Assembly (NCBI GenBank): GCA_963823665.1
Contig: CAWGMQ010000010.1
Location: 192,001 to 256,000, forward strand
Length of the DNA stretch: 64,000 bases
From: an uncultured Planctomycetota bacterium
Lineage (GTDB): Bacteria > Planctomycetota > Planctomycetia > Isosphaerales > Isosphaeraceae
Direction of reading: 5' to 3'
Each line of letters starts with the position of its first letter. The stretch's first letter is position 1. A program made the translations under genes and the position numbers. Shown piece after piece: positions 1,906 to 41,093 of the stretch. The notes beneath the pieces were generated by a model. It was not told the DNA's origin and did not search any database. It worked only from the letters and a program-made list of their open reading frames with translations.

Positions 1906-1966
1906 GCCATTGCTGAGAGAACGGGTCTGCGGGTGAGCGAGCGGAGAGGGCGGAAAGATGACATCT

Positions 1967-2110
1967 GTCCGCAGAGGACGCAGATAGACGCAGATGAAAG
2001 GCTGAGATCGGGGCAAGAACCGGGAACAGGCGCAGGCGGGTCGGTGAAACGCTGAACGGGCGGAGAGATGTCCGCAGAGGATCGCGCGTTCCTCTGCGTC
2101 ATCTGCGGAC
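1967..2110. repeat. Short CGCAGA(T/G) tandem and inverted repeat element
   Basis: ccgcagaggacgcagatagacgcagatg at 1969-1996, ccgcagagga at about 2072, and inverted cctctgcgtcatctgcgga at about 2091-2109. Confidence 0.55.
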
Positions 2111-2124
2111 CAAGCTCCGAATTC

Positions 2125-2330
2125 TCCAACTTCGCCTTCACCCGAAGATGAGCTGAATTCCTGACCGTCCACTTGCGGACCGACGTCTTCTCCCTTGATC
2201 GCCCCACTCTGCGGACCACAGCCACGGAAATCCAACGCGTCGCCATCATCTTTAATACCACCCTGCGGCCGGAAACTGCCGGCGTTTATTGCCAGCGCGC
2301 GCTCGAGCGCTTCGTCGAGGTCCAGCACTT
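2125..2330 (-). pseudogene. Degenerate C-terminal (sigma4) fragment of an ECF sigma factor (TIGR02999-like)
   Basis: VLDLDEALER, then after a frameshift RVVLK...SREKTSVRKWTVRNSAHLR, resembling the sigma4 end of this family. In-frame stop just upstream. Confidence 0.4.
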
Positions 2331-2576
2331 ATAGCCTCACGAGCTCGAGCGCATTCCTCGCACCGGCGTCGATCTCTACCTGAATATCGATGACGGACTA
2401 CGCTGCGGATGCACGAACGGATTCTGACCGCGATCAACAGTGATTCGCTATAACGAACGGGCCTGAATTCAATCGGTACTTCCTACCCAAGTCACGCGAA
2501 CCCAGCCCTCCCTGATGCCCGCGGTAAGATGGAGCGTTCGCTCAGGAAATCCGGGCTCGACAGTGATCCTTCTCGC

Positions 2577-2592
2577 TGGCACGCGGTTTGCT
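2577..2592 (+). promoter_or_regulatory. sigma54 (-24/-12) promoter
   Basis: TGGCAC-GCGGT-TTGCT, full consensus, intergenic, about 150 nt upstream of the lipoprotein gene. Confidence 0.8.
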
Positions 2593-2739
2593 CCTTTCCC
2601 CGCTCGCACTTCAACTCGCCTCCTTGACGCAGTGTCCGTGCTCTTGAATCCGCGTCGTCGGTTTCATGAGCTTTCGTAGTTCAATATATAAGGCGCTCCT
2701 GCGCAGTGATCGGAATTGTGTTGGCATGGGAGGATTACC

Positions 2740-3291
2740 ATGCGAAATAGCCTCGTGTTGCTCTCGGTCGTCGTCCTGAGCGGATGCGCCCAAACCGACG
2801 GCGTTCGGTATGTCTATCAAGATCGTGATTTCGGCGTGATCGGCATGCCCGAGAATTCGAATCATTGGCCTAGATACTACCGGACCCACGGCGAGAAGCT
2901 CATGAATACGCACTTCCCGGAAGGCCACGAGATTGTGCGTGCCGAGGAGGTCATTCAAGGCGAGCGCACCTCGAAGTTCGAGGGGTCGAATTCCGCCGAG
3001 GTTTCGCCGCAGATCAGCGACTCGCTTCTCAAGGTGGTCAAACTGGGGCATTCCGCAAGCCGCAGCGAAGCTGAAACGGTGAAGGTCAAGGAGTGCCGGA
3101 TCATTTACCGGCGGGTCGGTACGTTGAAGCCGAAGGACTATGCCGTGGCGACGACGCTCACCCCGGCGCTTTATATCGATCCTAATGCTGTCGAGCGCCG
3201 GAAGGCCACGGAGCCGTCGACTGAGAAGACAGCGGCGCGGGTTGAGCCAGCGCCCAAGCATGCGTCGGCAGTTGAATCGATCCTGAAGTGA
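2740..3291 (+). CDS. Hypothetical lipoprotein
   Basis: GGGAGG RBS; signal peptide MRNSLVLLSVVVLSG-C with LSGC lipobox. Confidence 0.8.
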   Translation: MRNSLVLLSVVVLSGCAQTDGVRYVYQDRDFGVIGMPENSNHWPRYYRTHGEKLMNTHFPEGHEIVRAEEVIQGERTSKFEGSNSAEVSPQISDSLLKVVKLGHSASRSEAETVKVKECRIIYRRVGTLKPKDYAVATTLTPALYIDPNAVERRKATEPSTEKTAARVEPAPKHASAVESILK

Positions 3292-3421
3292 CCATCTCCC
3301 GATCCCGGCCCTTGCCGACCATCCCTTTGCCGATCGCGGTTTCTCGGTCCTGGACCGCCGTTGATCCGAACGCGGTTAGAACTGGCAACGTTCCCGGCCC
3401 CGACGCGGCCCCGGTCAATAG

Positions 3422-3480
3422 CCACGGGCTTCAGCCCTTGGCACCTCATATGGCACTTCTTATGGCACTTCTTATGCCAC
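3422..3480. repeat. REP-like hairpin followed by 3.5 copies of a 12-nt tandem repeat
   Basis: ccacgggc-ttca-gcccttgg, then tggcacctcata/tggcacttctta/tggcacttctta/tgccac. Confidence 0.7.
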
Positions 3481-3488
3481 CCCGAACT

Positions 3489-5001
3489 TCAATCCTTCTT
3501 GAATTCGTTCTTATCAATCTGATAAAGCGCCAGCTTCTCCGTGATGGTTCGCCGCGACAGCCCCGTCAGCCGCGCCGTGCGCCCGATGTGGGCCCGCGTG
3601 CGCTTCGAGCGCCCGGCGCAGGTAGCGTTCCTCAAACGCAGCGGTCATCTCCGTGAGCTGCTCGGTCAGGGGTCGCGAGACATCCACAGGAAGCTGGTAC
3701 CGCGGACGGCCTGGCTTCAACACCTCCGCAGGCAGGTTCTCCGGGCGAATGACGTCATCGCGGCTGGTCACGCACGCGCGCTCGATCGCATTCTCGAGTT
3801 CGCGAATGTTCCCCGGCCAGCGGAACTTGATGAGCACCTCCATCGCCTCCGGAGAGATCGTCTTCGGTGGCGCTCCCGGCCTGCTGAATTTCTTCGCGAA
3901 GTGGCTGGCCAGCAGCGGAATGTCCTCGGCACGTTCGTACAGGGGCGGCAGATCGATTTTCACCACGTTGAGCCGGTAGTACAGGTCTTCGCGGAACCTC
4001 CCTTCCTTGGCTAGCTTGAGCAGATCGCGGTTCGTCGCAGCGACCAGCCGAACGTCGGTTTCAATCGTCAGAGTGCCCCCCACCCGCTCGAACCGGCGCT
4101 CCTGCAGCACCCGCAGCAGTTTGGCTTGCATCGACAGAGGAATCTCGCCGATCTCGTCCATGAAGATGGTCCCTCCATGGGCCAGCTCGAACCGTCCCTT
4201 GCGTTGACCGATCGCGCTTGTGAACGCCCCCTTCTCATGGCCGAATAGCTCGCTCTCCAGCAGCGACTCCGGCAGCGCCGCACAGTTCACCGCCACGAAC
4301 GGCAGCTTCCGCCGCGGCGAAGCGTCGTGCACCGCCCGCGCTACCAGCTCTTTTCCTGTCCCTGTTTCACCGAAGATCAGCACGTTGCTCACCGTCTCGG
4401 CCACGTGGCTGATCAGCTCGAACACGTCGTGCATCCGCGGGCTCTTGGAGAGGATGCTGTGAAACGCCGATTGTTCGTGCAGCTTCCCGCGCAGGGTGGC
4501 GACTTCGTCTTCGAGAGCCCGCTCGCGCAGCGACCGCTCAACCACCAGTTTCAGATGGTCGAGGTTGATCGGCTTGGTCAGGAAATCGGCGGCGCCGCAC
4601 CGCATCGCCTGCACCGCATCATCCACCGTGCCGAATCCCGTCGTGATGATCACGTCGGCCGGCAATCGTCTCTTCTGGACCTCTTGCAGCAGTTGAAGTC
4701 CGTCCAGCCGCGGCATCTTGAGGTCGGTCACCACCACGCTGTACGGCCGTTGGCACAGCGCCTCGAGCGCCTCGCTTCCGTTGCACGCGGTGTCCACCGC
4801 GATCGTTTGATCGGATTCCAGGAAAATCTGGATCTGCTTGCACGCCGTTGCACTGTCGTCGACGATCAGCACCCGCCTTCTTGCAGTCGCTCGCTCGCCG
4901 TTGCTGGGCGCGATCGACCTCCGCTTGGCGGCTCCGGGCTGGGCGCTGCCCCCTTCTTGGCACTCACGAAGCGTCTCCTCTGCGCACCACTTGACGTACA
5001 C
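3489..5001 (-). CDS. sigma54-dependent response regulator (NtrC/AtoC family: REC, AAA+, Fis-HTH); frameshift near 3606; start uncertain
   Basis: VLIVDD...DLKMP receiver, [42 protein letters not shown]. The HTH ([17 protein letters not shown]) continues in another frame to TGA at 3489. Confidence 0.93.
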
Positions 5002-5138
5002 GGCAGACCGGTTGACCGTCGGATTGAGAACCCAGCCTAGTATACATGGGAAACTCGTCCCTCACAAGCAATGCCACGCCGCCCATGCCGGCGGGTGACC
5101 GCCCCGAGAGACCCTCGATTTGTGCGGCTCCCGCCCAA

Positions 5139-5154
5139 CGGCGCGCCGCTTGCT
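5139..5154 (+). promoter_or_regulatory. sigma54 promoter upstream of the AI-2E/kinase operon
   Basis: CGGCGC-GCCGC-TTGCT with GG-N10-GC spacing, about 80 nt before ATG 5233. Confidence 0.6.
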
Positions 5155-5232
5155 ACAGAATTCCCAGGCGAGATTGGAACCGCGTTGGCTCCAGTCGCTA
5201 GTAAGTCGCACGCGGTCAAGAAGGATCGGCTG

Positions 5233-7205
5233 ATGACCAAAGGCTCGGGCGGATCCGACTGGCAGCGATCGATCGTCTTGCTATCGGGAACGGTGATCGC
5301 TGTCGTGGCCGTCACCGTACTGTACTGGGCGCAGTCAATCTTTATTCCGGTCGCACTCGCGATTTTCCTGACGTTCCTCTTGAACCCCGTCGTCGCCAGA
5401 CTGCGGCTCTGGGGCGTCGGCCGCACGCCCGCGGTGATCCTCACCGTGCTCACGGCCGCATTCGTGCTCGGCTCGGCCGGCTGGGTCGTCACCGCGCAGA
5501 TCTCCAGCCTGCTGCGCGAGCTGCCCGAGCACACGACGACGGTCAAAGCCAAGGTCAAGTCGCTCAAGAAGTACTTTGGCGGCTCCGGCCGCGTCACCCG
5601 CATGTTCGAGGAAATCAATCGCGAGATCGTGGGGCGCAGCCAGCCGCGGAGGGACAGTCCGCACCAAGCCCATCGGCTAACCAGACGTTGCCCGCCTCGC
5701 AACGGCCCCAGCCCGTGGTCGTCGAGCCCGAATCTCCAGTTTGGCTCGGCCGGATCTCCCACTTCTTGACCCCGATGATGGAGTACCTCGGCGAGCTTGC
5801 CCTGGCGATCATCCTCGTGATCTTCATGCTCCAGCAGCGCGAGGAGTTCCGCAACCGGTTGATCAGGCTCGTGGGCTACGGGCGCATCGCGCCGGCCACC
5901 CGGTTCGTTGACGAAGCCGGCCAGCGGATCAGCCGTTTCCTGCTCATGCAAGCGCTCGTCAACGGCTCGTTCGGGCTCGTCCTGGGCGCCGGCCTCCTCG
6001 CCCTGGGCGTCAAGTACGCGGTCCTCTGGGGCTTCCTCGGGGCCATGCTGCGATACTTGCCCTACGTCGGCCCGTATCTCGCTGCGGTGCTTCCCGTCTC
6101 GGCCGCCCTCGCATTCACCGATGGCTGGACGATAACCCTCCTCGTGATCGGCCTGTTCGTCACGCTCGAGCTCGTTGTTGCCAACCTGATCGAGCCCAAG
6201 ATCTACGGCCAGAGCATGGGCGTCTCCGAGATCGCCCTCCTGGTCTCGGCCGCATTCTGGGCGTTTCTTTGGGGGCCGATCGGCCTGATCCTCTCCAGCC
6301 CGCTCACGGTCTGCCTGATGATGCTCGGACGCTACGTCCCCCAGCTCGAGTTCCTCGCCGTCCTGCTCGGCGACCAGCCCGCCCTCGACCTGAAGGACAG
6401 CTTCTACCAGCGCCTGCTCGCGCGAGACCAGGATGAAGCCGAAGAGCTGATCCTCGAGCGCCAGAAGACCGAGCCTGCCGAGGCCGTCTTCGATACGATG
6501 ATCATACCTGCCCTGTGCGCCGCCCGCGGCAGCCGTATTCGCGGCGAGATCACCGAGGCCGACGAACGCTCGATAACATCTTCGCTTGCCGAGATCGTAG
6601 ACGACCTGGGCGAAGTACACGCCGGTTCGCCGCGGCCGAATCCGGATCCACCGGGCTCAGAGCCCGCTGCCGGGCCCGATCGGCCCCGTCCGATTGTCAT
6701 CTTCGGCTGCCCCGCACGCGACACAGCCGACTGCGTCGGGCTCCAATCACTCGAAAAGCTGCTCGACCCCCGCCGCTGGCGCATGACGTTCATCGCCCCG
6801 GAAACGTTGACGGCCGAGCTGCTCGAATTGACCGCGCGCGAAACCCCCGCACTCGTCTGCATCGCGTCCCTTGCTCCCGGTGGCCTGGCACACACTCGCT
6901 ATCTCTGCAAGCGGTTGAGCCGGCGCTTCCCCTCGCTCCGGATCGTCGTCGGGCGGTGGGGAGAGGAGCCCGGCGGAACGCGCCGCACCGATTTCGACGA
7001 CGCCGGTGCCACCAGCACCGCCCTATCGCTCGTCGAAACCCGCCAGAAGCTGGAGGCTCTGCTCCCCCTCCTCGATTCATCGCGCGACGACTGCCTCGCA
7101 CCGGATCAGCCGGTCCCGGCTCACGCCGCCGCGCCGGTTGGCTCGAGAAGATCGCTCAATCGCGCCGCCGCCAAGGACTTGACCGGCAAGGCTCCAGCAC
7201 TGTAA
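5233..7205 (+). CDS. AI-2E family transporter with C-terminal cytoplasmic (B12-binding-like) domain; frameshift near 5660
   Basis: IPVALAIFLTFLLNPVV, LRYLPYVG, IEPKIYGQSMGVS, WAFLWGPIGLILSSPLTVCL; C-terminal FYQRLLA...VCIASL...IVVGRWG. Two ORFs join with one added base. Confidence 0.88.
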
Positions 7206-7286
7206 ATCGAGCAGCCGCCGGGTCGCGCGAACCCGCAAGAGAGGCCCCGAAGATCCCGGATTCGTCGTTCTTTCCGACTGGGTCGC

Positions 7287-8908
7287 ATGTTCAGATCACT
7301 CACGATACTCCAGAAGGCGATCCTGATCGTTTCGATCCCCGTGCTTGCGCAGGGGATCTTCATCGGCATCCTGCTCACGTCCATGTCGGAAGGCGCCAGG
7401 GCGCAGAAGTGGGCGGTCCATACCAAGGAGGTGATCGCCAGGACAGAGGAAAGCTACCGCCTGTTGATCGGAGGTTATGCGGGCATGCGCAACCTGATCG
7501 TCCTCGAACAGCCGATCGAGCGCGATCCGTTCGTCGATGACTTTATTCGTGTAAGCGCCACCCTGGCCGAGCTCCGAGAGCTCGTGGCCGACAACCCTGC
7601 TCAGCAGGCTAGAGTCGATGACATCGCTGCCCGCGCCCGCGCGATCTCCAGTGGACTCGCCGGCATCGGGCGCCAGCTAAGAGCCGGGCAGCGCGACCAC
7701 GCCGTTCTTGGCCTTGATGAAGCGGCTCTGGCGATCGCAAGCGTGCGAAAAGAGATCGACGCCATGCTCGAGGACGAATCGCGGCTCGACCTCGCGCGAA
7801 TGAGCACGATGCGCCGCTCGAATTCCTGGCATTTCTGGATCTTGATCTGCGGCGGCGGCGCCATCCTGGCGCTGACCCTCCTCCTGGCCCTGGTCTTCTT
7901 TCAAGGCGTGGTCAGGCGGCTCGAAGTCTTGACCGAAAACTCCCGGCGCCTTGCCGAGGGCAGCCCGCTCAATCGCCCCTTGAGGGGCGGCGACGAGCTC
8001 GCGGTCCTGGACCGAGCTTTTCGGGAGATGGCTTCGACCTTGCTCGAGCAGAGAAAGGAGAACGAGATGTTTGTCTATAGCGTCTCGCACGATCTCCGTT
8101 CTCCACTCATCAATCTTCAGGGCTTTGCTGGCGAGCTCAAACTGGCCGCCCAGGAGCTCGGCCGGCTTTTCGACGACGACGAGATGCCGCCGCGCCTGAG
8201 AGATGAGGGCCGCAAGCTGATCACGGGCACTGTGGCCGAATCGGTCAGGTTTCTGCACGCGGCCGTCGATCGCCTGGCGGGCATCATCGACGCCCTCCTG
8301 CGCCTTCGCGCGCCGGCAGAGTGCCCTTCCAGTGGCAAATGCTCGAGGTCGGTGCGATCGTTCAGAAAGTCGTCGACGCACTGCGCGACAGCATCAAATC
8401 GAAACGGGCCGAAATAACGATCCCTTTTCTGCCGACGGCCTGGGGCGACCCCACCGCGGTCGAGCAGATCTTCGCCAATCTGCTTGATAATGCCGTTCGC
8501 TACCTCGACCCGGCTCGGCCGGGCCGGATCGAGGTGGGCACCATTCCGCCGGACCGGGGAGACGGCCTGTCCGACCTCCGGGTCTACTATGTGAAGGACA
8601 ACGGATTCGGCATTCCGCTGGCCTATCAGAACCGGATCTTCACGGCGTTCAACCGCCTGCATCCCGACGCGGCACAGGGCGAAGGGGTCGGGCTCGTTCT
8701 GGTGCGCCGGATGGTCGAGCGGCACGGAGGAAGGATCTGGCTGGAATCGAACGCCGGCGTGGGCACAACGTTTTTTGTCGCTCTGCCCGCCCGGCCCCTC
8801 GAAGGCGTCCAGTTCTCTCGTGGACAAAAGAATTCGGAACAACATACCGTGCAGGAAGGCCTTGGGCATGACACCAGAACCAATCTTGATCGTGTTGGCC
8901 GAGGATGA
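7287..8908 (+). CDS. CHASE3-HAMP sensor histidine kinase; frameshift near 8306
   Basis: TM, then WAVHT (CHASE3), TM, HAMP, YSVSHDLRSPL H-box; second frame has NLLDNAVRY, DNGFGI, GEGVGL. Confidence 0.9.
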
Positions 8909-9317
8909 CGACGGCCACGCGACACTCGTCGAGCGCAACCTCGTCCGGGTGGGCGTCGCCAACAAGATCCTCCGCCTGAAGGACGGCCAGGAGGCGATCG
9001 ATTTCTTCACGGCGCACGCCAGCGTCGCCCTGACTTCGCCGCGCTCGATCCTGCTTCTGCTCGACATCAAGATGCCGCGGGTCGACGGGATCGAGGTGCT
9101 CCGGCACCTCAAGTCCGACCCTCAGACGGCAACGATCCCGGTGATCGTGCTCACGACAACCGACGACCCCCGCGAGATCCAGCGCTGCTACGAGCTGGGT
9201 TGCAGCGTGTACATCACCAAGCCGGTCGACTATCAGGCCTTTGTCGAGGCGGTAAACCGGCTGGGCCTCTTTCTTCAGGTCGTTCGCATTCCCGACTTCG
9301 GTCAGACCGGACCCTGA
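8868..9317 (+). CDS. Single-domain response regulator (Rcp1-like)
   Basis: AEDDDGHA, LLLDIKMP, VIVLTTTDD, CYELGCSVYITKPVD. Confidence 0.92.
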   Translation: MTPEPILIVLAEDDDGHATLVERNLVRVGVANKILRLKDGQEAIDFFTAHASVALTSPRSILLLLDIKMPRVDGIEVLRHLKSDPQTATIPVIVLTTTDDPREIQRCYELGCSVYITKPVDYQAFVEAVNRLGLFLQVVRIPDFGQTGP

Positions 9318-9331
9318 GGGTAGAATCGCAC

Positions 9332-12131
9332 ATGGGAGCACGTAGCCAGGCACGGATCCTGCTCGTCGAGGATGATCAAGGCGTCGCCCGGCTCGAGCAG
9401 CTAGAGCTCGAGCGCGCAGGCTACTCCGTGGTCACGGCGACTACAGCGTCCGCGTGTCTCGAACGAGTGGCCGCGGGAGGCATTGATCTCATCGTCCTGG
9501 ACCAGCAGCTCGATGCCGGCTTGACCGGCTTGGACCTCTTCCGCCAGATCAAAGAGGCCGGCCAGGATGTGCCCGCCATCCTGGTCACCGGTCTTCAGGA
9601 CGAGAATCTGCTCGTCGAGGCGCTGCGCGCGGGAGTGCGCGACTTCGTCCCCAAGACTCCCAACTTTCTCAATCACCTCGAGCCGATCGTGAGCCGCGTG
9701 ATCCGCCAGGTGAGCACCGAGCGCGACCTCGCCGAATCGCGCATCCTGGCCCGCGAAAGCGAAGCCCGCCGCCGCGAGCTCGAGCACGAGATCGCCAGCC
9801 GCAAGCGCGTCGAGCAGGCGCTTCGCGAGGCGGAAGAAAGCCTGCGGCTCATGGTCGAGAGCATCAAGGATTTCGCGATCTTCACCGTCGATCCCGACGG
9901 CAGTATCGTCACCTGGAACTCGGGTGCCGATCAGCTCTTCGGTTATGCAGAAGCAGACATCATCGGCCAGAAGATCGCGGTGCTCTTTCCCCCCGAGGAT
10001 CGCGCCGCAGGAATCCCCGAGCAGGAAATCGCCGCCGCCGCCGCCACCGGCCGCGCAACCGACGAGCGCTGGCACATCCGCAAGGACGGCAGCCGGTTCT
10101 TCGCCAGCGGCGTGCTCGCACCGATCTTTGACGAAGACTCGAAGTTGAGAGGCTTCACCAAGATCGCTCGCGACATCACCCGACGAAAGCACGCCGAGGA
10201 GGCCGTGCGCGAGGCCGCCGTGCGGCTCGAAGGCAATCGTCGACACCGCCGCCGATGGAATCATCACGATCGACGAGCACGGATTGGTCGAGTCGATCAA
10301 CTTTGCCGCCGAGCGGATCTTCGGCTTCACTCGCGACGAAGTGGTCGGGTCGAACATCACCATGCTCATGCCCGAGCCCTATCGCAGCGAGCACGGAGGT
10401 TACCTCCTGGCCTATTTGACGACCGGCCAGCAGCGGATCATTGGCTCGGTTCGCGAAGTCATGGGCCTCCGTAAGGACGGCTCGACGTTTCCCATGGAGC
10501 TGGCCGTGAGCGAGACCCTCCTGGGCCAGCGCCGCATCTTCACCGGCATCGTTCGCGACATGACCGAATTCAAGAAGTCGCTCGCCGAGCGGAACCGGCT
10601 GGTCACCGAGCTGGGCGCCGAGCGCGCCTTGCTCAACAGCCTGCTCGACAAGGCCCCGGTCGGCCTTGGCTTTTTCGATTCCGATCTCCACTTCCTGCGC
10701 ATCAACCCCGCACTCCAGGAGATGGCCGCCCTTGACTTTGCGGATCGACCGGGCCAGACACTCCAGGACGCCTTCCCGGCACTCGCAAGCGATTTCTGCG
10801 AAGCCCTTGAAGAGGTGCTTTCAACCGGCCAGAGCATCATCAACAAGGAAATCGCCTTCGAGACTGCAGGAAAAACCGGCCCCGCTCGCTACTGGCTCTG
10901 CAGCTTCTACCCCGTAAAAACCCCCGACGGCACCATCTTGGGCGTCGGCTCCGTGGTTGCCGACATCGACGACCGCAAGCGAATGGAAAAAGCACTGCTG
11001 GATGCCGACCAGCGCAAGGATCACTTCCTCGCCATGCTCGCGCACGAGCTGCGAAACCCACTGGCTCCCATCAGCAACGCCGTTCAGATCATGCGCATCG
11101 AAGGACCGGGCGGGGCCAACCTGGAATGGTCGATCGACGTCATCGCCGATCAGATCAAGCACATGACCCGCATCGTCGACGACCTGCTCGACGTCTCCAG
11201 GATCACCCGAGGAACGGTCTCGCTGCGCAAGGAGTCGATCGAGCTCGAACGGGTCGTCGAGCTCGCCGTCCAGGCCAGCCAGCCGGTGCTCGAGGACTAT
11301 GAGCACGAGCTTCGCATCACGCTTCCACCGCAAACCGTCGTCCTCGACGTCGACCCCGCGCGCCTGGCGCAGGTACTCAGCAATCTGCTCAACAACGCCG
11401 CCAAGTACACACCGGAGGGGGGCCGGATCGAGCTGACCGCGGCTCTGGCGGGCTCCGATGTCCTCGTGACCGTCAAGGATAACGGCATCGGCATCGCGCC
11501 CGAGCTCCTCCCCAAACTCTTCGATATGTTCGTCCAGGCCGATCAAACCCTCTCGCGCTCGCGCGGCGGCCTGGGAATCGGGCTCACGGTCGTCCGCTCC
11601 CTGGTCGAGATGCATGAAGGAACCGTGAGCGTGCACAGCGACGGACCCGGAACAGGGAGCGAGTTCACCTTCCGCATCCCCCTGGCGGAATCATCGGCCG
11701 TCGCCGTCGCCAAGACGAAAGTGCACCCCGAGGGCCCCGCACGCACGCTACCGCGACGGCGAATTCTCGTCGTCGATGATAATCTCCGAAACGCGGCGAG
11801 CCTCGAAAAACTGCTCACTGCGCTCGGGCAGGAAGTCCACACTTCATACGATGGACGCGACGCCCTGGAGATGGCCCGCATCCACCATCCCGACGTCATC
11901 CTGCTCGATATCGGCCTCCCCATCATGGACGGCTACGAAGTGGCCCGTCGCTGCCGCGACAATCCTGCCTTGTCGAAAATCATCCTGGTCGCCATGACCG
12001 GCTACGGCAAAGCCGAAGACAGGCGGCGCTCGCAGCTCGCGGGATTCAACGCACACCTCGTCAAGCCCGTCGGCCTCGAAGACCTTGCACTCCTCCTCGA
12101 GCACACCGCGACGAACGCCCCATCGTGTTGA
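9332..12131 (+). CDS. Hybrid sensor kinase REC-PAS-PAS-PAS-HK-REC; frameshift near 10230
   Basis: N-terminal receiver, three PAS/PAC repeats, FLAMLAHELRNPLAPI, NLLNNAAKY, GGLGIGL, C-terminal receiver. Confidence 0.9.
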
Positions 12132-12159
12132 GGCCCCCGACCCTGGGCCCCGTCGAACC

Positions 12160-12375
12160 TCAGTCTCCGCCCGCCTCACCAGGTCCGCATCCCAACTGGC
12201 GGACGCCCGATTCACTTGGCGCGCTCGCACGCATTCGCGCATGGTTCGCCATATGACGCAGATAGCACAGCCACGAACAACACTCCTCCGAGCAATGCCG
12301 GCAAAAAACACCGTTGCGCAGCCCCCCGCCACACTCCGGGCACTTATCGCCATCCATACGAGATTGGCTGTCCAC
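12160..12375 (-). CDS. Small Cys/His zinc-finger-like protein (71 aa)
   Basis: AGGAG RBS 5 nt before GTG; pattern C-x2-C-x9-C-x2-C-x4-C-x3-C-x3-H; sigma54 motif upstream. Confidence 0.65.
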   Translation of the reverse strand: MDSQSRMDGDKCPECGGGLRNGVFCRHCSEECCSWLCYLRHMANHARMRASAPSESGVRQLGCGPGEAGGD

Positions 12376-12487
12376 CGTTTCTCCTGGAAAGCTCCCTCAC
12401 AAACGCACGGCCATCCTCACGCCCTCCGCTATCCCAACCTGCTCTCTCCCGAGAACCACCTCCAGAACCCCGCCACATATTAAGCTA

Positions 12488-12503
12488 TGCACCTCTCGTG
12501 CCG
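12488..12503 (-). promoter_or_regulatory. sigma54 promoter for the zinc-finger microprotein
   Basis: Minus strand CGGCAC-GAGAG-GTGCA (GG-N10-GC), about 110 nt upstream of GTG 12375. Confidence 0.55.
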
Positions 12504-13063
12504 TGACGAAGAGCGCACCCACCCGAGCGCTTCACGACTGCCGTCCACCTCGTCTCACGATCCTGAGGAACAGGCTGACATTAACGTCCTGATTTCGACA
12601 TCAACCCTACCCCGAAGCAAAGCCCTCGTTTGGCGCATCCCGTCGGAATGATCTCCCGCTCCGCGGCCCGCTTCATGTGAATCGGCGGAAGTTGTTCCCG
12701 ACTCGCTCCTAAGAATGCAAGCGTGCATGGTGCCATGAAAGGCGGCCACGCGGCGGTTGAGAAGCAATATAGAACACAAAGTTGCTTCCGGGGCTCGGTG
12801 TTGGTTTAGTGCCACATCGGGCGTGGTTTCCGTTGTAGGAAAGCGACTTCGTGCGGGTTTATCCGGAAACGTGCCTTGAATAAGAACTTTCTCGGGCTAT
12901 TCTCGACCACTGCGACGCGGTGATGCAGCTTATTCTTGCACTCCGGGTACGAAGGGAATCGGCTTCCGCCTCATGTTTCATGACGCGCTCGCGTGTGTTG
13001 CTAGAACCCCCGACTCGAGACATTGGCGTTCGCTCGCTTCTTCATTTGAACCGGAGGGAAACC

Positions 13064-14563
13064 ATGCCCAGACATCGCGCCAGACGTGATCGCACCGGTC
13101 CGCCCACCAGCCGAAAACGCGCCCTTGCGCCGATCCCCGAGATTCTGGAGGGCCGCCTGCTCCTCTATGCGGCCTTGGGCGACCAGTTTGTCTACAGCAG
13201 TCGCATCACCTATAGCTTTATGCCCGACGGCACCAACGTTGGTGGCGTGCCCAGCGCCCTCTTTGCGACATTGAATGCCAAGTACCCGACCGCAACCTGG
13301 GAGGCGCAGATCGAACAGGCCGCCTCGATCTGGGAAAACGCCGCCAATCTTAACCTGGCGCTCGTTTCCGACGGCGGCGAAGCCGTGGGCAGCTCGGGCG
13401 ACCAGCAAGACGATCCTCGATTCGGAGACATCCGCATCGGTGCCGTCCCCTTGGGCTCCGGCACGCTGGCAGTGACGTTCCTCCCTCCGCCGGCCAATGG
13501 CGGAACCGATGCTGGCGACATCCTGCTGAACTCGAACATCAACTGGCAGGTCAACTCGAACTATGACCTGATGACCGTGATGGCCCACGAATTCGGCCAT
13601 GCCCTCGGGCTGGGCGACGTGTCCAGCCCCACGGACCCTTACCCGGTGATGTATGGCGAATATGAAGGAATCAACCAGGCGCTCACCGCCGACGACACCG
13701 CCGGCATCCAGGCCGTCGACGGGGTGCGCCAGTTCGACGCTTATAATGTCGGGGGCAAGCGCAACCTTTCCTACCTGACGGCGCCGAACATCTCGGGCAA
13801 TTTCGGCAGCAACGCCCAGCTCGCGATCCCGTCGCTGGATATCACGACCGGCGGCGACAGCGAGTGGTTCTACCTCACGGTTCCCTCGACCACGACAGGC
13901 ACGATGACCGTGAGCGTCCAGTCGACCAACTTGAGCTCCCTCTCACCCAAGCTAATGGTCTACAACTCCTCGCTGGGTCTGGTCGATCAGGCGCTGGCTG
14001 CCAATTCGATGGGCGCCACCGTCAGCGTCAGCACCAGCGTCGCCGCGAACCAGGGCTACTACATCAAGGTACTGGCCGCGCCCGGTTATGGGTCCATCGG
14101 CAGCTACGGGCTGCTCGTCAACGCCGGCTCGCAGTCACAGGCCGCCATTCCTCCGCCGAATACATATGTCGCACAGCAGCCCGATCAGAGCGGCGGCTCA
14201 ATCACCAACGGCGTCACGCCAACCGGTGGCGCAAACACGCCCCCGCTGCCTCCGGGCGCGGTCCTCATGACCATCGGTAACCTGAGCGGATGGGCCTTGG
14301 GCTTCACCAGCCCGCCAGTTGCGCCGACGACTTCACCCCCCGAATCGCCGTCCAGCCCGGCGCCTCCGCCAGCAAGCCCGAGTCCGACCGCTCCTACTGT
14401 CCCTATCGCCGCGCCCAGCCCGGTCCCGGTCACGCCGGTCTTTTCATCCTCCCGGCACCACGCCAAGGTGAAACACCACAACCTGCCAAAAGCTGCCGTC
14501 ACGCACCGGATCAAGCTCGTGACCGATCACCATCACAAACCGAAGTCCCATCGCGACCACTAA
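13064..14563 (+). CDS. Matrixin (M10-like) zinc metalloprotease, exported, with Pro-rich and His/Lys-rich tail
   Basis: GGAGG RBS; planctomycete LEGRLLL motif; GDIRIG; HEFGHALGLGD; PVMY Met-turn. Confidence 0.85.
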   Translation: MPRHRARRDRTGPPTSRKRALAPIPEILEGRLLLYAALGDQFVYSSRITYSFMPDGTNVGGVPSALFATLNAKYPTATWEAQIEQAASIWENAANLNLALVSDGGEAVGSSGDQQDDPRFGDIRIGAVPLGSGTLAVTFLPPPANGGTDAGDILLNSNINWQVNSNYDLMTVMAHEFGHALGLGDVSSPTDPYPVMYGEYEGINQALTADDTAGIQAVDGVRQFDAYNVGGKRNLSYLTAPNISGNFGSNAQLAIPSLDITTGGDSEWFYLTVPSTTTGTMTVSVQSTNLSSLSPKLMVYNSSLGLVDQALAANSMGATVSVSTSVAANQGYYIKVLAAPGYGSIGSYGLLVNAGSQSQAAIPPPNTYVAQQPDQSGGSITNGVTPTGGANTPPLPPGAVLMTIGNLSGWALGFTSPPVAPTTSPPESPSSPAPPPASPSPTAPTVPIAAPSPVPVTPVFSSSRHHAKVKHHNLPKAAVTHRIKLVTDHHHKPKSHRDH

Positions 14564-14853
14564 AAAAGATCACCCGCGCCGATCCGGGGCAGGCATGCCC
14601 TGTCCCGGTTCGCACGCGGGTGATTCGTTCCCCGCTTTGTTCATCTCCTCAGCGATTCGCCCGGCTCTCCCGCTCGACCGCGCCTTGGCTCGCTGAGCCC
14701 GTTCGTGTGCCCGCGCCTTCCTGCACCATCTTGCGGCACGATTCTTCGCACCGCCGGCACTCATCCGCGCACATCTTCATTTCATCACCAGAATCGCGCA
14801 CGACTCATCAGTCTTGACCGCTTGTGCAGTCGCCCGGAACCGGTCGAACGCAG

Positions 14854-14895
14854 AAAACGGCGCGAGCCAGCGCTCGTGAACACTGGCTCGCGCCG
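14854..14895 (-). terminator. Intrinsic terminator after csbD
   Basis: 13-bp perfect stem cggcgcgagccag/ctggctcgcgccg followed by TTTT on the minus strand. Confidence 0.6.
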
Positions 14896-14920
14896 CGATG
14901 TCACGGCTTCGGTTGATCGG

Positions 14921-15373
14921 CTAGCGGGAGCGCAAAGCCAAGCCGACCACGACGCCCAGAAGGACGCCGGCTCCGAACGCCGTGGCGACCGATCGGGTGG
15001 GATTATCGCGGATCATGTCCCGCGACACTTCGTATCCCCGTTCGAATTCGCCGGAAATCCGGTTGTACCCTTCGCGCGCCTGGTGGGCCACGCGATCATA
15101 CCCCTCGCGGGCGCCTTCCGCGGCCTGACGTACATACTGGCCAGCGCTTTCCGCGGCTTGCGAGATCGCCGAGGCACCCTGCGCGGTCAGTTCGTCCAGG
15201 AACCCCTCGACTGCTTCTCGGGCTTCTCCCGTCTTGTGCTGAATTCGCCCGATGAGCTGATCGATATTTCCGTTGGCGAATCTCAAGTCGTCGTCGGTCA
15301 ATTGACCCCACTTCTTCTTGAGCTGCCCGCGCACCTGGTTCCACTGACCTTGCAATACTTGTGTGTTGACCAT
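14921..15373 (-). CDS. csbD: CsbD family protein with C-terminal DUF883-like membrane anchor
   Basis: LQGQWNQVRGQLKKKWGQLTDDDL...DQLIGRIQHKTG; ends IRDNP...GAGVLLGVVVGL. Confidence 0.88.
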   Translation of the reverse strand: MVNTQVLQGQWNQVRGQLKKKWGQLTDDDLRFANGNIDQLIGRIQHKTGEAREAVEGFLDELTAQGASAISQAAESAGQYVRQAAEGAREGYDRVAHQAREGYNRISGEFERGYEVSRDMIRDNPTRSVATAFGAGVLLGVVVGLALRSR

Positions 15374-15441
15374 GGAAACGGTCTCCTCCCCATTGATTGC
15401 GTTAGAAGCCTGGATTCCTGCTGTTCCCTGCTCAGGGGCCG

Positions 15442-15645
15442 CTAGTTCTTCTTCTCCGCCGGTGCCAGCGGCGGATTCTCACCCTTCTTGTCGATCGTCG
15501 TCTCGGTATGCTGGCGCGTGGTGCCGTCAGGCGTCTTGATTGTCGTGTCCGTCTTGACGCCACTCTCGTCGGCGCAGCCGGAGAAGGCGATCGTGAATCC
15601 GCAGAGTACCGCCGGAGCAAGAAGAGCACTGATAGCTTTACGCAT
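15442..15645 (-). CDS. Small lipoprotein
   Basis: MRKAISALLAPAVLCGFTIAFSG-C lipobox; GAGGA RBS. Confidence 0.75.
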   Translation of the reverse strand: MRKAISALLAPAVLCGFTIAFSGCADESGVKTDTTIKTPDGTTRQHTETTIDKKGENPPLAPAEKKN

Positions 15646-15728
15646 CTCTTTTCCTCAGATGTTAAGCTCTTGACGGCATGCAACCCCGCTCGGAGTCCGT
15701 CATTTGCCGTCATCGCCGGGAGATACAT

Positions 15729-15744
15729 TGCAACAACCGTGCCG
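15729..15744 (-). promoter_or_regulatory. sigma54 promoter (lipoprotein-csbD unit)
   Basis: Minus strand CGGCAC-GGTTG-TTGCA. Confidence 0.75.
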
Positions 15745-15825
15745 ATCGCGGCGATTCTCGAGCCACCGCCGGCCAACACGTACACTGATCCCCCGCGGAC
15801 CGCGCCACATAATGACGGCGCCAAT

Positions 15826-15841
15826 CGGCACATGGCTTGCA
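15826..15841 (+). promoter_or_regulatory. sigma54 promoter (15937-17280 unit)
   Basis: CGGCAC-ATGGC-TTGCA, divergent from the 15729 site. Confidence 0.75.
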
Positions 15842-15936
15842 TAGAATAGAACCAGCAGGCCGCGCAAGTGCGGGCAGGCACCAGAGCCCGCCTTTGATAC
15901 GTTGGCGGCACACAGCAAACCCGAGCGAGCCCAGCG

Positions 15937-16464
15937 ATGGCAACGTCGAGAGCGGGTGGTGGAACAGATCTGAGCGAGCTGCAGCGGCAGATGGCCCAGA
16001 TCCGTCACGAAATGCACGAGGAGGTCAGAGGAGCGGTGCGCGGCGCACAGTCCTTGACCGATTGGCGACGCATCGTCGCAAATCACCCATGGGCCGCGCT
16101 CGGAATCGCCGCCGCCGCGGGGTTTCTGGTCGTCCCCTCGCGCCGCGCCAGGCGCATGGATCAGTCGCTGCCCACGACGGCCCTTGCCCAGGCAACCCAG
16201 AGCCCGGCGCCGTATCGCGGCGTACCTTCGCCGGTAGCGGGTCTGGGCGTGCTGCGTACCGCGCTCGGGCTCCTCACTCCTGTCATCGCCAGGGCGGCTC
16301 AGAACTACGCGCTCAATCAGATCGAGCACTGGCTCGCCGAAAATGCGTTCCGATTCAAGGAAATGGCGGAGGCTCGCGCGGCCGAAACGGTGCAAGCCCC
16401 GCGTGCGGATCAGAGTCGCGTCGCCCCAACGATCCCTTTTCGAGACCGCCTCGAGCGACCTTGA
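15937..16464 (+). CDS. Hypothetical membrane-anchored stress protein (DUF3618-like)
   Basis: LQRQMAQIR...LTDWRRIVANHPWAALGIAAAAGFL. Confidence 0.7.
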   Translation: MATSRAGGGTDLSELQRQMAQIRHEMHEEVRGAVRGAQSLTDWRRIVANHPWAALGIAAAAGFLVVPSRRARRMDQSLPTTALAQATQSPAPYRGVPSPVAGLGVLRTALGLLTPVIARAAQNYALNQIEHWLAENAFRFKEMAEARAAETVQAPRADQSRVAPTIPFRDRLERP

Positions 16465-16540
16465 CCGAGGAACGATCACCTTCGCCGGCAAGAGTGATCG
16501 CCGGCCTTTCCAGCAAACCCTCGTTCAAAAGGAAAAGATC

Positions 16541-16780
16541 ATGTTCTCATTTTCTCGATCAGCGCATTCCGGCAATGGAAGTCACGGCCATTCAGGCACA
16601 GCCGTTGATCTCGCTGACGAAGCGCGGCAGGCACTCGATCAAGCCGGCCAGCAGGTGCGAGACCGCTTCGGCGACCTCGAAGAAATGGTGGAAACGTGGG
16701 TGAAGACTCGTCCCGGACTGACTCTCGGAGCCGCGCTAGCGGTAGGAGTGGTGATCGGATGGCTGATCAAGAGGCGCTGA
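16541..16780 (+). CDS. DUF883/ElaB-YqjD-like tail-anchored protein
   Basis: WVKTRPGLTLGAALAVGVVIGWLIKRR C-terminus. Confidence 0.75.
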   Translation: MFSFSRSAHSGNGSHGHSGTAVDLADEARQALDQAGQQVRDRFGDLEEMVETWVKTRPGLTLGAALAVGVVIGWLIKRR

Positions 16781-17280
16781 GCCAGCACAACGGATCGGGC
16801 AGCTCGGCGAGATTCGCCGCCGGCCTTCGCGACTCCGGTGGTCGCTCGCCTCAGCCGGTGCGAACCGAGGCGGCGGCCGGCGAAGTGGTGAGCAATGTCG
16901 CCGGCTTCGGCGAGAATCTGCTCAATCTGGCCGAGCTCCAAGCTCGCATGGCCGCGGTCGAGCTGCGCCAGAACGTGAGTGCCATGAAGGCCGCCGGCAC
17001 CGTGCTCGCGGCCGCCGCGCTCCTTGCAGTGGCCTCGTTCCCGGTCGTGCTGGCGGGCATCGCCGAGCTTCTGGTCTCGGAGCTCGCGTGGCGACGCGGT
17101 CATGCCCTCCTCACGGTGGGCTTGGCCACGATCGGCATCGCCGCGCTTGTCGCCGTCACAGCGGCCGTCTGGCTCAGGCGCCAGCAATTCGGGTTCCCGT
17201 TGTCGGCCGAGGAGTTCACCCGAAACCTGAACTGGGTGCACACGGTGTTGCGCTTGAGCGGGCGCCGCCCGACGCGGTGA
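16759..17280 (+). CDS. Holin-like (DUF1469/YqjE-type) membrane protein
   Basis: LAELQARMAAVEL followed by two TM helices; typical neighbour of DUF883 genes. Confidence 0.75.
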   Translation: MADQEALSQHNGSGSSARFAAGLRDSGGRSPQPVRTEAAAGEVVSNVAGFGENLLNLAELQARMAAVELRQNVSAMKAAGTVLAAAALLAVASFPVVLAGIAELLVSELAWRRGHALLTVGLATIGIAALVAVTAAVWLRRQQFGFPLSAEEFTRNLNWVHTVLRLSGRRPTR

Positions 17281-17296
17281 AGCTGAACGACCGGAA

Positions 17297-17746
17297 TCAG
17301 GCCGGGGTCACCGCGTCCCTGACCACCTGTCCCATCATCCGGTCCGAAAGAACCGGCGCGATATCGGCCCAGCCGATGATTCCTTGCACTTCGCCCCGGG
17401 AATCGACGACCAGAACACGCCTCACTCCCTGGGCTCGTAGCACACCACAGACCTCCTCGAGCCGGTCATCCGCTGCCACCGAGACGATTCCAGGTGTCAT
17501 GATGGATCCCACGGTTTGACTGGAGAGCTCCGGGAACTCCGAGATCGCCAGCGCAACGTCACGATCGGTCAGAACGGCCACGGGCTTGCCTTCTTCCAGG
17601 ATCGGCACCGCCCCGCAGTCGTTGTCCCGAAAAATCATCACCGCTTCCAGGACCGTGCTGAACGTCGAGCAAGTGCGCGGCGCGGCCGTCATCACATCGG
17701 CCGCCCTTATCAAATCGAGTGCCTTCCAGTCCTCGCGGTCGTTCAT
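17297..17746 (-). CDS. CBS domain protein
   Basis: DVMT...CGAVPILEEGKPVAVLTDRDV...SIMT...VRRVLVVD..GII. Confidence 0.9.
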   Translation of the reverse strand: MNDREDWKALDLIRAADVMTAAPRTCSTFSTVLEAVMIFRDNDCGAVPILEEGKPVAVLTDRDVALAISEFPELSSQTVGSIMTPGIVSVAADDRLEEVCGVLRAQGVRRVLVVDSRGEVQGIIGWADIAPVLSDRMMGQVVRDAVTPA

Positions 17747-17822
17747 GAGGGGTCATTCCTCTCGAGTATTCGATTGCGCAAACGAGCAAGCGCACGTTGC
17801 ATCTCCTGTGCACAGAAGCACC

Positions 17823-17838
17823 AGCATATCCCATACCA
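17823..17838 (-). promoter_or_regulatory. sigma54-like promoter for the CBS gene
   Basis: Minus strand TGGTAT-GGGAT-ATGCT (GG-N10-GC, weaker match). Confidence 0.5.
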
Positions 17839-17892
17839 GATTGTTCGCCTATCCGCGGTCCCTTTGCGCGATTTCGCTCCCGCCGGGCGCGA

Positions 17893-17908
17893 TGGCACCA
17901 CATTTGCC
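17893..17908 (+). promoter_or_regulatory. sigma54 promoter
   Basis: TGGCAC-CACAT-TTGCC, about 75 nt before ATG 17984. Confidence 0.75.
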
Positions 17909-17983
17909 CTATTTGCTCCACTGACAGGAGGGCGCGCTCCGAAGTGAGAGCGCGTGCTCGATTTCGCAATGAGGAGATCAGCG

Positions 17984-18181
17984 ATGGATACAGCCTTCGA
18001 TGTGAGATACCCGAAAAATATGGTCACGGCCTCCGGCGCGGAAAGTGTCAATTGGGCCGAGTCGACAATTCATTCGGTTGTCCACTGCCTCGAGGATTAT
18101 GCGCGAGCGCGGCCGTTGTCGTTCGCAATGTGGACGTTCGGCATCGGCTTCGCGCTGGGTTGGAAGCTGAAGCCCTGGTGA
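17984..18181 (+). CDS. Small tail-anchored hypothetical protein
   Basis: GAGGAG RBS; YARARP...FGIGFALGWKLKPW, a DUF883-like C-terminus. Confidence 0.75.
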   Translation: MDTAFDVRYPKNMVTASGAESVNWAESTIHSVVHCLEDYARARPLSFAMWTFGIGFALGWKLKPW

Positions 18182-18457
18182 AGCCCGACGCGTGTGACCG
18201 CGGCGGGTCTTGACCAGAACCGACCCGTGGGGCCGAACCGGCTCGACTCGGTTGAATGACGACCTCATTCGAACGCCTCCCGCCGGCCGGCCACCACGGC
18301 GGCGGGACCGCCGCTGCCCGCTGTGGCGGCGGCGATCTGGTCCCATGATCCGGCGAAAGAGCAGCTCCGGTCGCCGGTCCATGCGCGGATTTACCCAAAA
18401 TGCAATCTAAATACACTCATTCCATCAATAAAGAATAAAAATTGGTTTTAAACCATT

Positions 18458-18473
18458 TGGCACTGGGTTTGCA
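18458..18473 (+). promoter_or_regulatory. sigma54 promoter with AT-rich upstream tract
   Basis: TGGCAC-TGGGT-TTGCA preceded by an AT-rich stretch at about 18395-18455 (possible IHF/bending region). Confidence 0.82.
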
Positions 18474-18555
18474 TTTATTAGCCAGGTGTCGGGATCGGTC
18501 GGCTCGAAGCAGCGGACCGGGTCCTCTCATTCTTAGATGAACAAGGAGCCAATCG

Positions 18556-18726
18556 ATGTTGCACTATGCGGTGGTATTTCTGGTGATAGCGCTTCTGGCC
18601 GCGATCTTCGGATTCGGCGGCATTGCCGGAGCGGCTGCCGGCATTGCGAAGGTTCTGTTCTTCGTTTTCCTGGTTCTGTTTATCGTATCGCTCATCTTCG
18701 GGCGCACACGAACACCAGTTGTTTAA
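18556..18726 (+). CDS. DUF1328 (UPF0391) small membrane protein, 56 aa, absent from the ORF track
   Basis: [65 protein letters not shown]. Confidence 0.93.
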
Positions 18727-18874
18727 GCGCCGGCCTCTTCGCAGGCCTCGGCAAATGGCCGCGGCGGGCCGGCCGGATCGTCACCACCGGCGAGAACCTG
18801 CGGGAGATTGATCCAGTTCGGATCCCTTCCCTGCGTGAGGGGAGGGAAAAACACCTTTCGAGAAGGAGTAAGCA

Positions 18875-19129
18875 ATGAATTGGGATACGGTCAAGGGTGA
18901 CTGGAAGCAGTTCCAGGGCAAGGTCAAGGAAGCTTGGGGCAAGATCACAGATCAGGAGCTCGACGTGATCGCCGGCAAGCGAGATCAGTTGGTCGGCGCG
19001 ATCCAGAAGAGTTACGGAATCGCCCGCGATGAGGCCGAGCAGCAAGTCGCGCAGTTCGAGCGCTCCTGCGGCGACGGCCACTCGTGCTCGACAACGACTG
19101 AGCGGCCGGAGCTGTCCAAAGCCCGCTGA
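18875..19129 (+). CDS. csbD: CsbD family protein
   Basis: MNWDTVKGDWKQFQGKVKEAWGKITDQELDVIAGKRDQLVGAIQKSYG; AAGGAG RBS. Confidence 0.93.
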   Translation: MNWDTVKGDWKQFQGKVKEAWGKITDQELDVIAGKRDQLVGAIQKSYGIARDEAEQQVAQFERSCGDGHSCSTTTERPELSKAR

Positions 19130-19158
19130 CGAAACGTGCGCGTCGGCGACACCGGCAC

Positions 19159-41055: not shown

Positions 41056-41093
41056 AACGGGCGATCACGGATCGCTCTACCCGGGAGAAACGC

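Follow-up and report, generated by a model that had tools for sequence, protein, structure and literature searches.

A predicted sigma-54-controlled island of stress-type genes with its own NtrC-type activator in a planctomycete of the family Isosphaeraceae

The stretch of DNA described here (64,000 nucleotides in full and referred to below as the window) spans positions 192,001 to 256,000 of contig CAWGMQ010000010.1 in assembly GCA_963823665.1, a 16.46 Mb genome (92% complete) from an uncultured planctomycete of the family Isosphaeraceae. Positions 2577 to 19129 of the window hold an island of mostly small genes resembling those induced by general stress in other bacteria, together with genes for an enhancer-binding activator and two sensor kinases. 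A first-pass annotation, made from the sequence alone, noted eight intergenic -24/-12 motifs in this island and proposed that the lineage runs its general stress response through the alternative sigma factor sigma-54 (RpoN) and the local activator. On follow-up the regulon is judged to be genuine and sigma-54-dependent, made up of stress-type genes, but to cover part of the stress cargo only. Our preferred reading is that predicted sigma-54 promoters and a local, kinase-fed activator switch on small stress-type cargo together, and to this we assign a probability of roughly 0.6.

The gene names given by the first-pass annotation were largely upheld by Pfam (Table 1), which recognises two CsbD proteins, a DUF1328 protein, a YqjE-like protein (as Phage_holin_3_6), a CBS protein and an AI-2E family protein, and which gives a weak DUF883_C match for two further proteins. 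The two putative lipoproteins, neither of which has a match in Pfam or NCBIfam, owe their name to lipobox-like cysteines judged by eye. The activator said to be encoded within the island is indeed there, Pfam identifying a protein with receiver (REC) and Sigma54_activat domains. The M10 peptidase-domain gene is probably outside the regulon although within the island.

Table 1. Predicted -24/-12 boxes, genes and other features of the island (positions are those of the window; box scores are matches out of 12)
Feature	Position	Strand	Remarks
-24/-12 box	2577..2592	+	12/12; predicted start about 2603
Putative lipoprotein, 183 aa, no family	2740..3291	+	No Pfam/NCBIfam match
NtrC-type enhancer-binding protein: REC + AAA + Fis-like HTH	3489..4967	-	Pfam for REC and AAA
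Sigma-70-type promoter motif TTGTGA-N17-TATACT of activator gene	5039..5067	-	Conserved in its clade
-24/-12 box	5139..5154	+	10/12; heads AI-2E/kinase operon
AI-2E family membrane protein	5233..7205	+	Pfam; frameshift near 5769
CHASE3-HAMP-HisKA-HATPase sensor kinase	7287..8908	+	Pfam; split ~8321-8417
Single-domain receiver protein	8868..9317	+	Pfam
REC-PAS-PAS-PAS-HisKA-HATPase-REC hybrid kinase	9332..12131	+	Pfam; split near 10200-10280
Small Cys-rich (zinc-finger-like) ORF	12160..12375	-	Kept in G019 and one metagenome protein
-24/-12 box	12488..12503	-	10/12; before Cys-rich ORF
M10-type peptidase-domain protein, no box	13064..14563	+	Pfam
CsbD + DUF883_C-like protein	14921..15373	-	Second gene of unit; own box in many relatives
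Putative lipoprotein, 67 aa	15442..15645	-	No Pfam/NCBIfam match
-24/-12 box	15729..15744	-	11/12; divergent pair with 15826
-24/-12 box	15826..15841	+	10/12
Three-gene unit of membrane proteins: 175-aa DUF883_C-like, 79-aa ElaB/YqjD-like, 173-aa YqjE/holin-X-like	15937..17280	+	
CBS-pair protein	17297..17746	-	Pfam
-24/-12 box	17823..17838	-	9/12; same 16-mer in G019
-24/-12 box	17893..17908	+	10/12
Tail-anchored-type small protein, 65 aa	17984..18181	+	DUF883-like through BLAST clustering only
-24/-12 box	18458..18473	+	11/12; predicted start about 18484
DUF1328/YtjA small membrane protein	18556..18726	+	Pfam
CsbD/YjbJ-like protein, without own box	18875..19129	+	Pfam

All eight motifs were recovered where the first-pass annotation had placed them and on the same strands, with the exact GG-N10-GC spacing and with scores of 9 to 12, the score being a plain count of matches (maximum 12) to the consensus TGGCACG-N4-TTGCW rather than the product of a trained matrix. 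Each lies in intergenic DNA and is oriented towards a gene whose start codon follows after 75-147 nt, close to the distance of about 75-150 nt noted earlier, and the predicted leaders are 65-137 nt long; gene starts are approximate here and throughout, the gene caller having been trained with one of its 20 genes out of frame. The weakest motifs are those at 17823 (9/12) and 5139 (10/12). By number alone the motifs of the window are only modestly above chance, 12 sites scoring 10 or more against 5.5 +/- 2.2 in 30 Markov shuffles, and genome-wide there is no excess of the strict pattern (45 matches, compared with 57 for a reversed control). The non-chance signal is instead the clustering and placement of the motifs. 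Four of the 45 strict genome matches fall within the 16.5-kb island, where 0.045 would be expected (Poisson P 2e-7), and with our usual threshold of 9 and a search range of 25-200 nt before the gene start, a box precedes eight of 17 island gene starts but none of 26 genes beyond 19.2 kb.

The further claim that the rest of the window holds no sites of equal quality stands for intergenic sites but not for coding sequence, where there are five good matches: 9348+, 27035+, 36892+ and 48953+ (each scoring 10) and 53824+ (scoring 11). The match at 27035-27050 (+) is encoded by the final codons of a MetE-like gene and ends some 24 nt before the gene for a PAS hybrid kinase, just outside the 25-nt distance cut-off; it could be a hidden ninth promoter. 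An 11-nt tandem repeat at 3438-3480, which sits directly past the activator gene and whose TGGCAC-type units form overlapping boxes on both strands, is unconserved in relatives and was rejected as a promoter. One soil metatranscriptome has contigs matching the island at 18511-19130 (2 differences in 151 letters and 17 in 498) and short pieces of other cargo genes; these were not counted as support, since assembled contigs reveal neither the start and strand of a transcript nor its level, and the dataset had been picked out by means of this same sequence.

Conservation was assessed with two sets of cargo and control genes from related genomes. In the first (28 relatives' loci, cargo genes being counted where the gap before them is 60 nt or more), a box scoring 9 or more precedes 79 of 108 cargo genes and 22 of 167 other genes, the corresponding figures at 10 or more being 59/108 and 10/167. 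In the second (40 further loci, at least three of which repeat loci of the first, with signalling genes removed from the controls) the counts are 107/148 against 14/217, and 83/148 against 5/217 at the higher threshold. The comparison of orthologues suggested by the first-pass annotation has therefore gone in its favour, with motifs kept before orthologues while the flanks diverge, over many genera.

Individual families bear this out to differing degrees. At the threshold of 9, the DUF1328 box is present at 20 of 29 other loci of the family (2/29 on the reverse strand), at 10 of 12 loci of the Gemmataceae and at 13 of 29 loci of other families in the phylum (4/29 on the reverse strand); outside the planctomycetes, DUF1328 was not found in 11 of 13 genomes queried, and a score of 8 was obtained for the DUF1328 genes of one Acidobacteriaceae and one Verrucomicrobia genome. 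Boxes precede all 14 orthologues of the 175-aa DUF883_C-like gene that follows 15826+, 14 of 16 of the 67-aa lipoprotein gene, 10 of 14 of the AI-2E gene and 10 of 13 of the CBS gene, and stand-alone CsbD genes of the family are mixed (14/29). Comparison with G019, a genome of the same genus, finds the 12488- box and its Cys-rich ORF at the same position and the GG of the 5139+ box lost. The island as first drawn needs amending at its left edge, which is genome-specific: homologues of the 183-aa lipoprotein gene behind the 2577+ box occur in 27 of 85 family genomes and are unlinked to the island there, but the box itself is kept (19 of 24 other loci).

Amongst control genes 6-13% score 9 or more, and this, along with the count of 45 against 57 given above, is what one would expect if the motifs had arisen by chance in intergenic DNA rich in GC, or if sigma-54 bound them but they were inactive as promoters. 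Conservation that is specific to strand, distance and gene family, over many genera and between diverged flanks, makes such an explanation scarcely credible. Judged from sequence, the eight motifs are very probably working sigma-54 promoters.

The activator comprises a receiver domain (PF00072, E 8e-28), in which D60, T88 and K110 are invariant in 13 orthologues, an AAA+ domain (PF00158, E 2e-72) and a helix-turn-helix (HTH) that in G019 scores 20.3 bits against HTH_8, below the cut-off of 22. The HTH is strongly conserved, with the recognition helix GLSRR(S/T)(I/V)xxKI, and a search of the PDB with it returned nothing significant. The best NCBIfam scores of the activator are to the AtoC, NtrC, PrsR-type, NifA and ZraR models, all of them under cut-off. 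Homologues 74-83% identical are found in records labelled Isosphaeraceae, and of the 85 family genomes 52 have an orthologue, recognised in 50 by a C-terminal profile at 109 bits or more and in the other two by a full-length match. In at least 15 family genomes the activator lies on the same contig as DUF1328 and within 25 kb of it, and activator and similar cargo also occur together in the Gemmataceae. Of the seven family genomes (two genera only) in which none of the three activators sharing this helix is present, six are without DUF1328 as well. That motifs lie beside an activator and are kept across two families suggests that sigma-54 and an ATP-driven activator, in place of a dedicated stress sigma factor, likely switch part of the stress genes.

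A quick tree, in which the three island clades do not group as one, divides the island activators into three groups, including clade A, to which the window belongs and in which the helix reads RRTIT(D/E)K(I/L), and clade B, with the helix RRSVSGKI. The sigma-70-type motif of the window's activator gene is the sole one found by a scan of 2000-19500. Unlike the window clade with this motif, Gemmataceae loci L045-L060 have an activator gene with its own -24/-12 box about 60 nt upstream, and self-activation is possible there.

The search for a shared enhancer that had been suggested for the upstream regions found none in the window's clade and a cross-validated candidate in the sister clade B. Pooled searches over all family promoters, for dyads and by expectation maximisation (EM), gave nothing sharp; a spike-in control indicated that they would have detected a palindrome had 30% of the promoters carried one. 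Enhancer-independent activation was our first reading of this pooled failure, and for clade B it was overturned by a clade-wise search, in which EM found a palindrome with the core GCA-N6-TGC (log-likelihood (LL) 70, against 30 for shuffled promoters). At 10 bits or more the matrix hits 20 of 70 promoters from 15 non-training genomes, compared with 5.5% of shuffles (p 8e-7), counts in which divergent pairs enter one site twice and to which some genomes of the same genus as the training set contribute. The palindrome is enriched at a spacer of N6 only (18% against 2%). Its sites cluster ahead of the lipoprotein box (-82 to -84) and of the DUF883-like box (-88 to -93), and it is positioned at three island operons, at one of them in the region that operon and activator gene have in common. 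The clade B activator probably docks on this candidate site, YYGVGCA-N6-TGCBCRR, about 83-93 nt before the box, and the predicted link between activator and enhancer is supported for the sister clade only. A TGTATA motif also returned by EM is the -10 box of the activator's sigma-70 promoter and not an enhancer. The CBS promoters of clade B begin 6-37 nt past the activator stop codon.

Several results weigh against a local circuit of this kind. No enhancer common to the eight window promoters or to the clade A operons was found, the clade B matrix is not enriched in clade A (1/43 and 2/60 promoters), and a de novo search of clade A yielded one AT-rich element at one promoter, with nothing more after masking. 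That element (TTCTCAAA-N4-TTYRACAA, at -82 to -101 in nine of 14 orthologues) was not called an enhancer because it is absent from the window and from the other operons; the clade A negative as a whole is soft, since the spike control there was weak (LL 52, blurred). The loop of the window's activator reads GAFTSA rather than GAFTGA (across 41 loci it is GAFTSA, GSFTSA or GSFTGA, with F and T always retained), and a frameshift in the present assembly separates it from its HTH. Activators are numerous in the genome, with 17 full domains above 200 bits and one split, and two paralogues share the GLSRR helix. In all five g39 genomes (94-99% complete) the DUF1328 box is kept and an activator orthologue was not found, a different activator adjoining DUF1328 in four of the five; a strong orthologue was likewise found in none of 150 genomes of other families, though boxes occur in them. 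A lone match of 9 or 10 proves little given the scores of yjbJ (9) and elaA (10) in Escherichia coli, where yqjC scores 8 and osmY, ytjA and elaB have no box, and because related genomes are not independent the p-values of the conservation tests are too strong. Finally, the genome has a second stress island (C10:2.42-2.49 Mb; L117-L120) with three CsbD-like genes and DUF1328, ElaB-like, AI-2E, bacterioferritin-like and Pmp3-like genes, in which a box scoring 9 or more precedes three of the 22 genes checked, none of them CsbD-, DUF1328- or ElaB-like.

This second island, in which few members of these cargo families have boxes, tells against the proposal that the whole general stress response runs through RpoN. 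A repeated leader with a terminator, of which the genome has 20 copies, 11 of them in the second island, adjoins genes that we take to be DUF2294-like, and a further cargo island (C10:296,000-321,000; L270-L271) has the same leader and DUF2294-like genes and is mostly without sigma-54 boxes. As the second island is mostly without boxes and carries the leader, cargo of the CsbD/DUF1328 type appears to be under at least two systems in this genome. Conversely, the sigma-54 set extends beyond the island, as DUF2171, BON-like, YHS and glycosyltransferase genes elsewhere in the genome also have strict boxes in front of them. Amongst sigma factors, rpoN is present once (one Sigma54_DBD match, E 5e-60). 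The best score for RpoS is 259 bits (TIGR02394, cut-off 378.7) and that for SigB/F/G 132 bits (TIGR02980, cut-off 234), and no match to NepR (PF18557) was obtained amongst the 150 of 187 candidates scored in this 92% complete genome. Other candidates comprise three short group-2-like factors and at least 150 sigma-70 region-2 matches. What survives of the proposed wiring through RpoN and a local activator is accordingly its core: conserved motifs, an rpoN gene, no RpoS, SigB or NepR over cut-off and an activator that is often linked to the cargo.

The proposal that the local activator drives all eight promoters is weakened by the failure to find an enhancer in its clade, by the presence of some 18 activators and by the g39 box for which no orthologue was found, and an alternative has to be considered in which the promoters depend on sigma-54 but it is other activators that open them, or any active one from solution, the island being one part of a broad sigma-54 regulon of planctomycetes to which dnaK, BON, DUF2171 and YHS genes would also belong. 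Such a reading would accommodate the boxes that persist where an activator orthologue was not found and the failure to find an enhancer in the window's clade. It would also fit the crowding of promoters, 17 of 112 family promoters having less than 50 nt of noncoding DNA upstream and 12 pairs of back-to-back divergent boxes lying 2-13 nt apart (L225, L226, L239, L242, L037, L040-L042, L062, L057, L072), as well as the strict boxes before DUF2171, BON-like and YHS genes and a dnaK box beside a paralogous activator. There is a precedent in Rrp2 of Borrelia burgdorferi, a sigma-54 activator atop the RpoS programme that is reported to be enhancer-independent despite its DNA-binding domain (PMC1976401). 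It is harder to reconcile with an activator-cargo linkage kept across many genera and two families, with the palindrome positioned at three island operons of the sister clade and with the strong conservation of the activator's HTH, and we regard it as unlikely. The local activator is probably the main driver of the promoters.

One of the paralogues with the GLSRR helix adjoins clpB-dnaK (G000:C4:863,000-872,000; L268, and also L281 and L282), and in three genomes a box scoring 11/12 lies some 170-190 nt ahead of dnaK. A sigma-54 heat-shock arm acting through this paralogue is possible.

Four genes of the island are frameshifted in this assembly, a feature of which the first-pass annotation made no mention: the activator gene, the AI-2E gene and both kinase genes. 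In the activator the reading frame breaks near 3610, which puts the HTH tail (3489-3635) out of frame, and there are two more one-base indels in the N-terminal part. Damage to four regulatory and transport genes could mean that the circuit is decaying in the window genome, its promoters orphaned or run by others, and such decay would be in keeping with the reduction of a copper-storage gene to a remnant at 14649-14801 and with the shortening, in the window, of the spacer that holds the clade A upstream element. We consider this very improbable. A short-read contig 99.8% identical to 4885-5321 is without two of the extra bases (the break near 3610 is covered by none of the short-read contigs examined), and the HTH tail, read in the shifted frame, is still a 100% match to the motif of G019. 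The AI-2E gene and both kinase genes are single ORFs in relatives (L037, L038, L042, L238 and L239 in the case of the CHASE3 kinase), and 36 of 41 loci have the activator HTH in frame. Elsewhere in the window many unrelated genes are frameshifted too, a xanthine-dehydrogenase-like gene (38335-41228) and a lactate permease gene (51680-53637) both being split. The short-read contig, the intact genes of relatives, the HTH in frame in most loci and the unrelated split genes together make assembly error the likely cause.

In E. coli, yjbJ, osmY-ytjA, elaB and yqjCDEK are controlled by RpoS, and in Bacillus csbD is controlled by SigB. In Sphingopyxis, csbD is a direct stress target of EcfG (PMC7083833). 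The cargo of the window shares with these regulons the CsbD/YjbJ, DUF1328/YtjA, ElaB/YqjD-like and YqjE-like families. Unlike the RpoS, SigB and PhyR-NepR-EcfG systems, however, the island lies in a genome without RpoS, SigB or NepR over cut-off and has predicted -24/-12 promoters, which require an ATPase activator. It fails membership of these regulons but likely works like them.

In mechanism the system is of the classical NtrC type, with nothing new in the mechanism itself. Like NtrC, AtoC, ZraR and NmpR (group I), the island activator has a REC-AAA-HTH architecture, kinases nearby and predicted sigma-54 targets, and NmpR too is part of a multi-kinase relay (PMC11841059). It differs from them in its GAFTSA/GSFTSA loop and GLSRR helix, which mark a separate planctomycete group, and its presumed targets are many small stress-type genes rather than a single metabolic operon of the NtrC type. 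A further parallel may be drawn with the BphP/KinB-AlgB system of Pseudomonas, in that the island also has an NtrC-type regulator with several kinases. The algB gene presumably adjoins a DUF1328 gene, and we take PA14_62680 to be CsbD-like. AlgB itself is an NtrC-type regulator with several kinases and a large light-induced programme, although RpoN dependence of its targets is not shown in the available text of either source (bioRxiv 10.1101/747618; PMC12780092). Unlike that system, the island has neither a phytochrome nor KinB, and the AlgB-type site TGCA-N3-TGCA is absent from positions 1-20000 of the window, where only an N6 pair (4839) and an N4 pair (12716) are found. The comparison with Borrelia shows two differences: there sigma-54 drives one gene, rpoS, whereas in the window the boxes lie directly on cargo, and Rrp2 acts without an enhancer, whereas the island's sister clade has a candidate one.

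The circuit that we envisage would begin with an activator made constitutively from a housekeeping (sigma-70-type) promoter. The CHASE3 kinase may sense a salt or energy-state signal, the weakest step, proposed by analogy with CHASE3 kinases that elsewhere act as inputs to SigB/SigF stress systems and have been connected with the sensing of salt (PMC10950880). A phosphorelay would then run through the single receiver and the hybrid kinase to the REC domain of the activator, whose AAA domain would use ATP to open pre-bound sigma-54 polymerase. Small stress-type membrane, periplasmic and hydrophilic proteins would be induced jointly, and the AI-2E/kinase operon, itself a predicted target, would provide positive feedback.

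A local circuit of this form might instead serve development or the envelope (through budding, the formation of a stalk or holdfast, the swimmer-to-sessile switch or dormancy) and not general stress. The cargo consists mostly of small membrane and periplasmic proteins of unknown function, and the window's island is without catalase, Dps or trehalose genes. A predicted Planctomycetia sigma-54 regulon is enriched in MscS, Usp, CBS-domain, chaperone and signalling genes, and sigma-54 is tied in the same study to envelope, motility and secretion genes (PMC12316311); control of thioredoxin/msrB by rpoN has been suggested under common stress, and in Rhodopirellula rpoN is down-regulated under salt (PMC2754498). 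The match of the gene set to RpoS, SigB and EcfG targets argues for stress nonetheless, as do the bacterioferritin-like, GlgB/TreZ-like, YihY and copper-storage genes that relatives' islands also carry and the service of CHASE3 kinases in stress sigma systems elsewhere, and we think a developmental role distinctly improbable. Provided that the promoters function, a stress role for the regulon seems quite likely by analogy with these systems.

Neither planctomycete study, in its available text, names the island, its activator or the enhancer, and CsbD goes unmentioned in both; the available text of PMC12316311 is also without DUF1328, Isosphaera or general stress, and five COG numbers looked for are absent from its 11 supplement files. 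Our literature search found no description of the island or of sigma-54 control of csbD or DUF1328, although older work on Pirellula activators may bear on it.

Some further features of the region deserve mention. The noncoding stretch at 12700-13060, ahead of the M10 gene, shows high conservation in G019 and partial conservation in G023 and holds the TGCA-N4-TGCA pair as well as a conserved AT-rich box near 12770; it has no Rfam match (Rfam gave no match in the window nor in the second stress island) and is possibly a leader RNA or a regulatory site. The remnant at 14649-14801 (-) derives from a four-helix copper-storage (Csp-like) gene that is intact in the islands L224 and L043. Just upstream of the window (G000:C10:172,000-189,000; L121) are cas genes and a long CRISPR array, recognised by its repeated translated units.

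Planctomycetes, which commonly inhabit soils and peat, form a group in which we know of no master regulator of general stress. A tentative and rather doubtful extension of our reading is that one activator family stands in for RpoS/SigB in the Isosphaeraceae and Gemmataceae, the island member serving general stress via sigma-54 and its paralogue dnaK/clpB, with helix and enhancer having co-diverged between clades, clade A being largely enhancer-free, and a parallel arm working through the DUF2294-linked attenuator. The analysis names a candidate stress regulator, in the form of an activator family with its kinases, together with some six target units that are conserved and, in clade B, a 20-bp candidate docking site, and it would tie DUF1328, two small lipoproteins and a Cys-rich microprotein to one programme.

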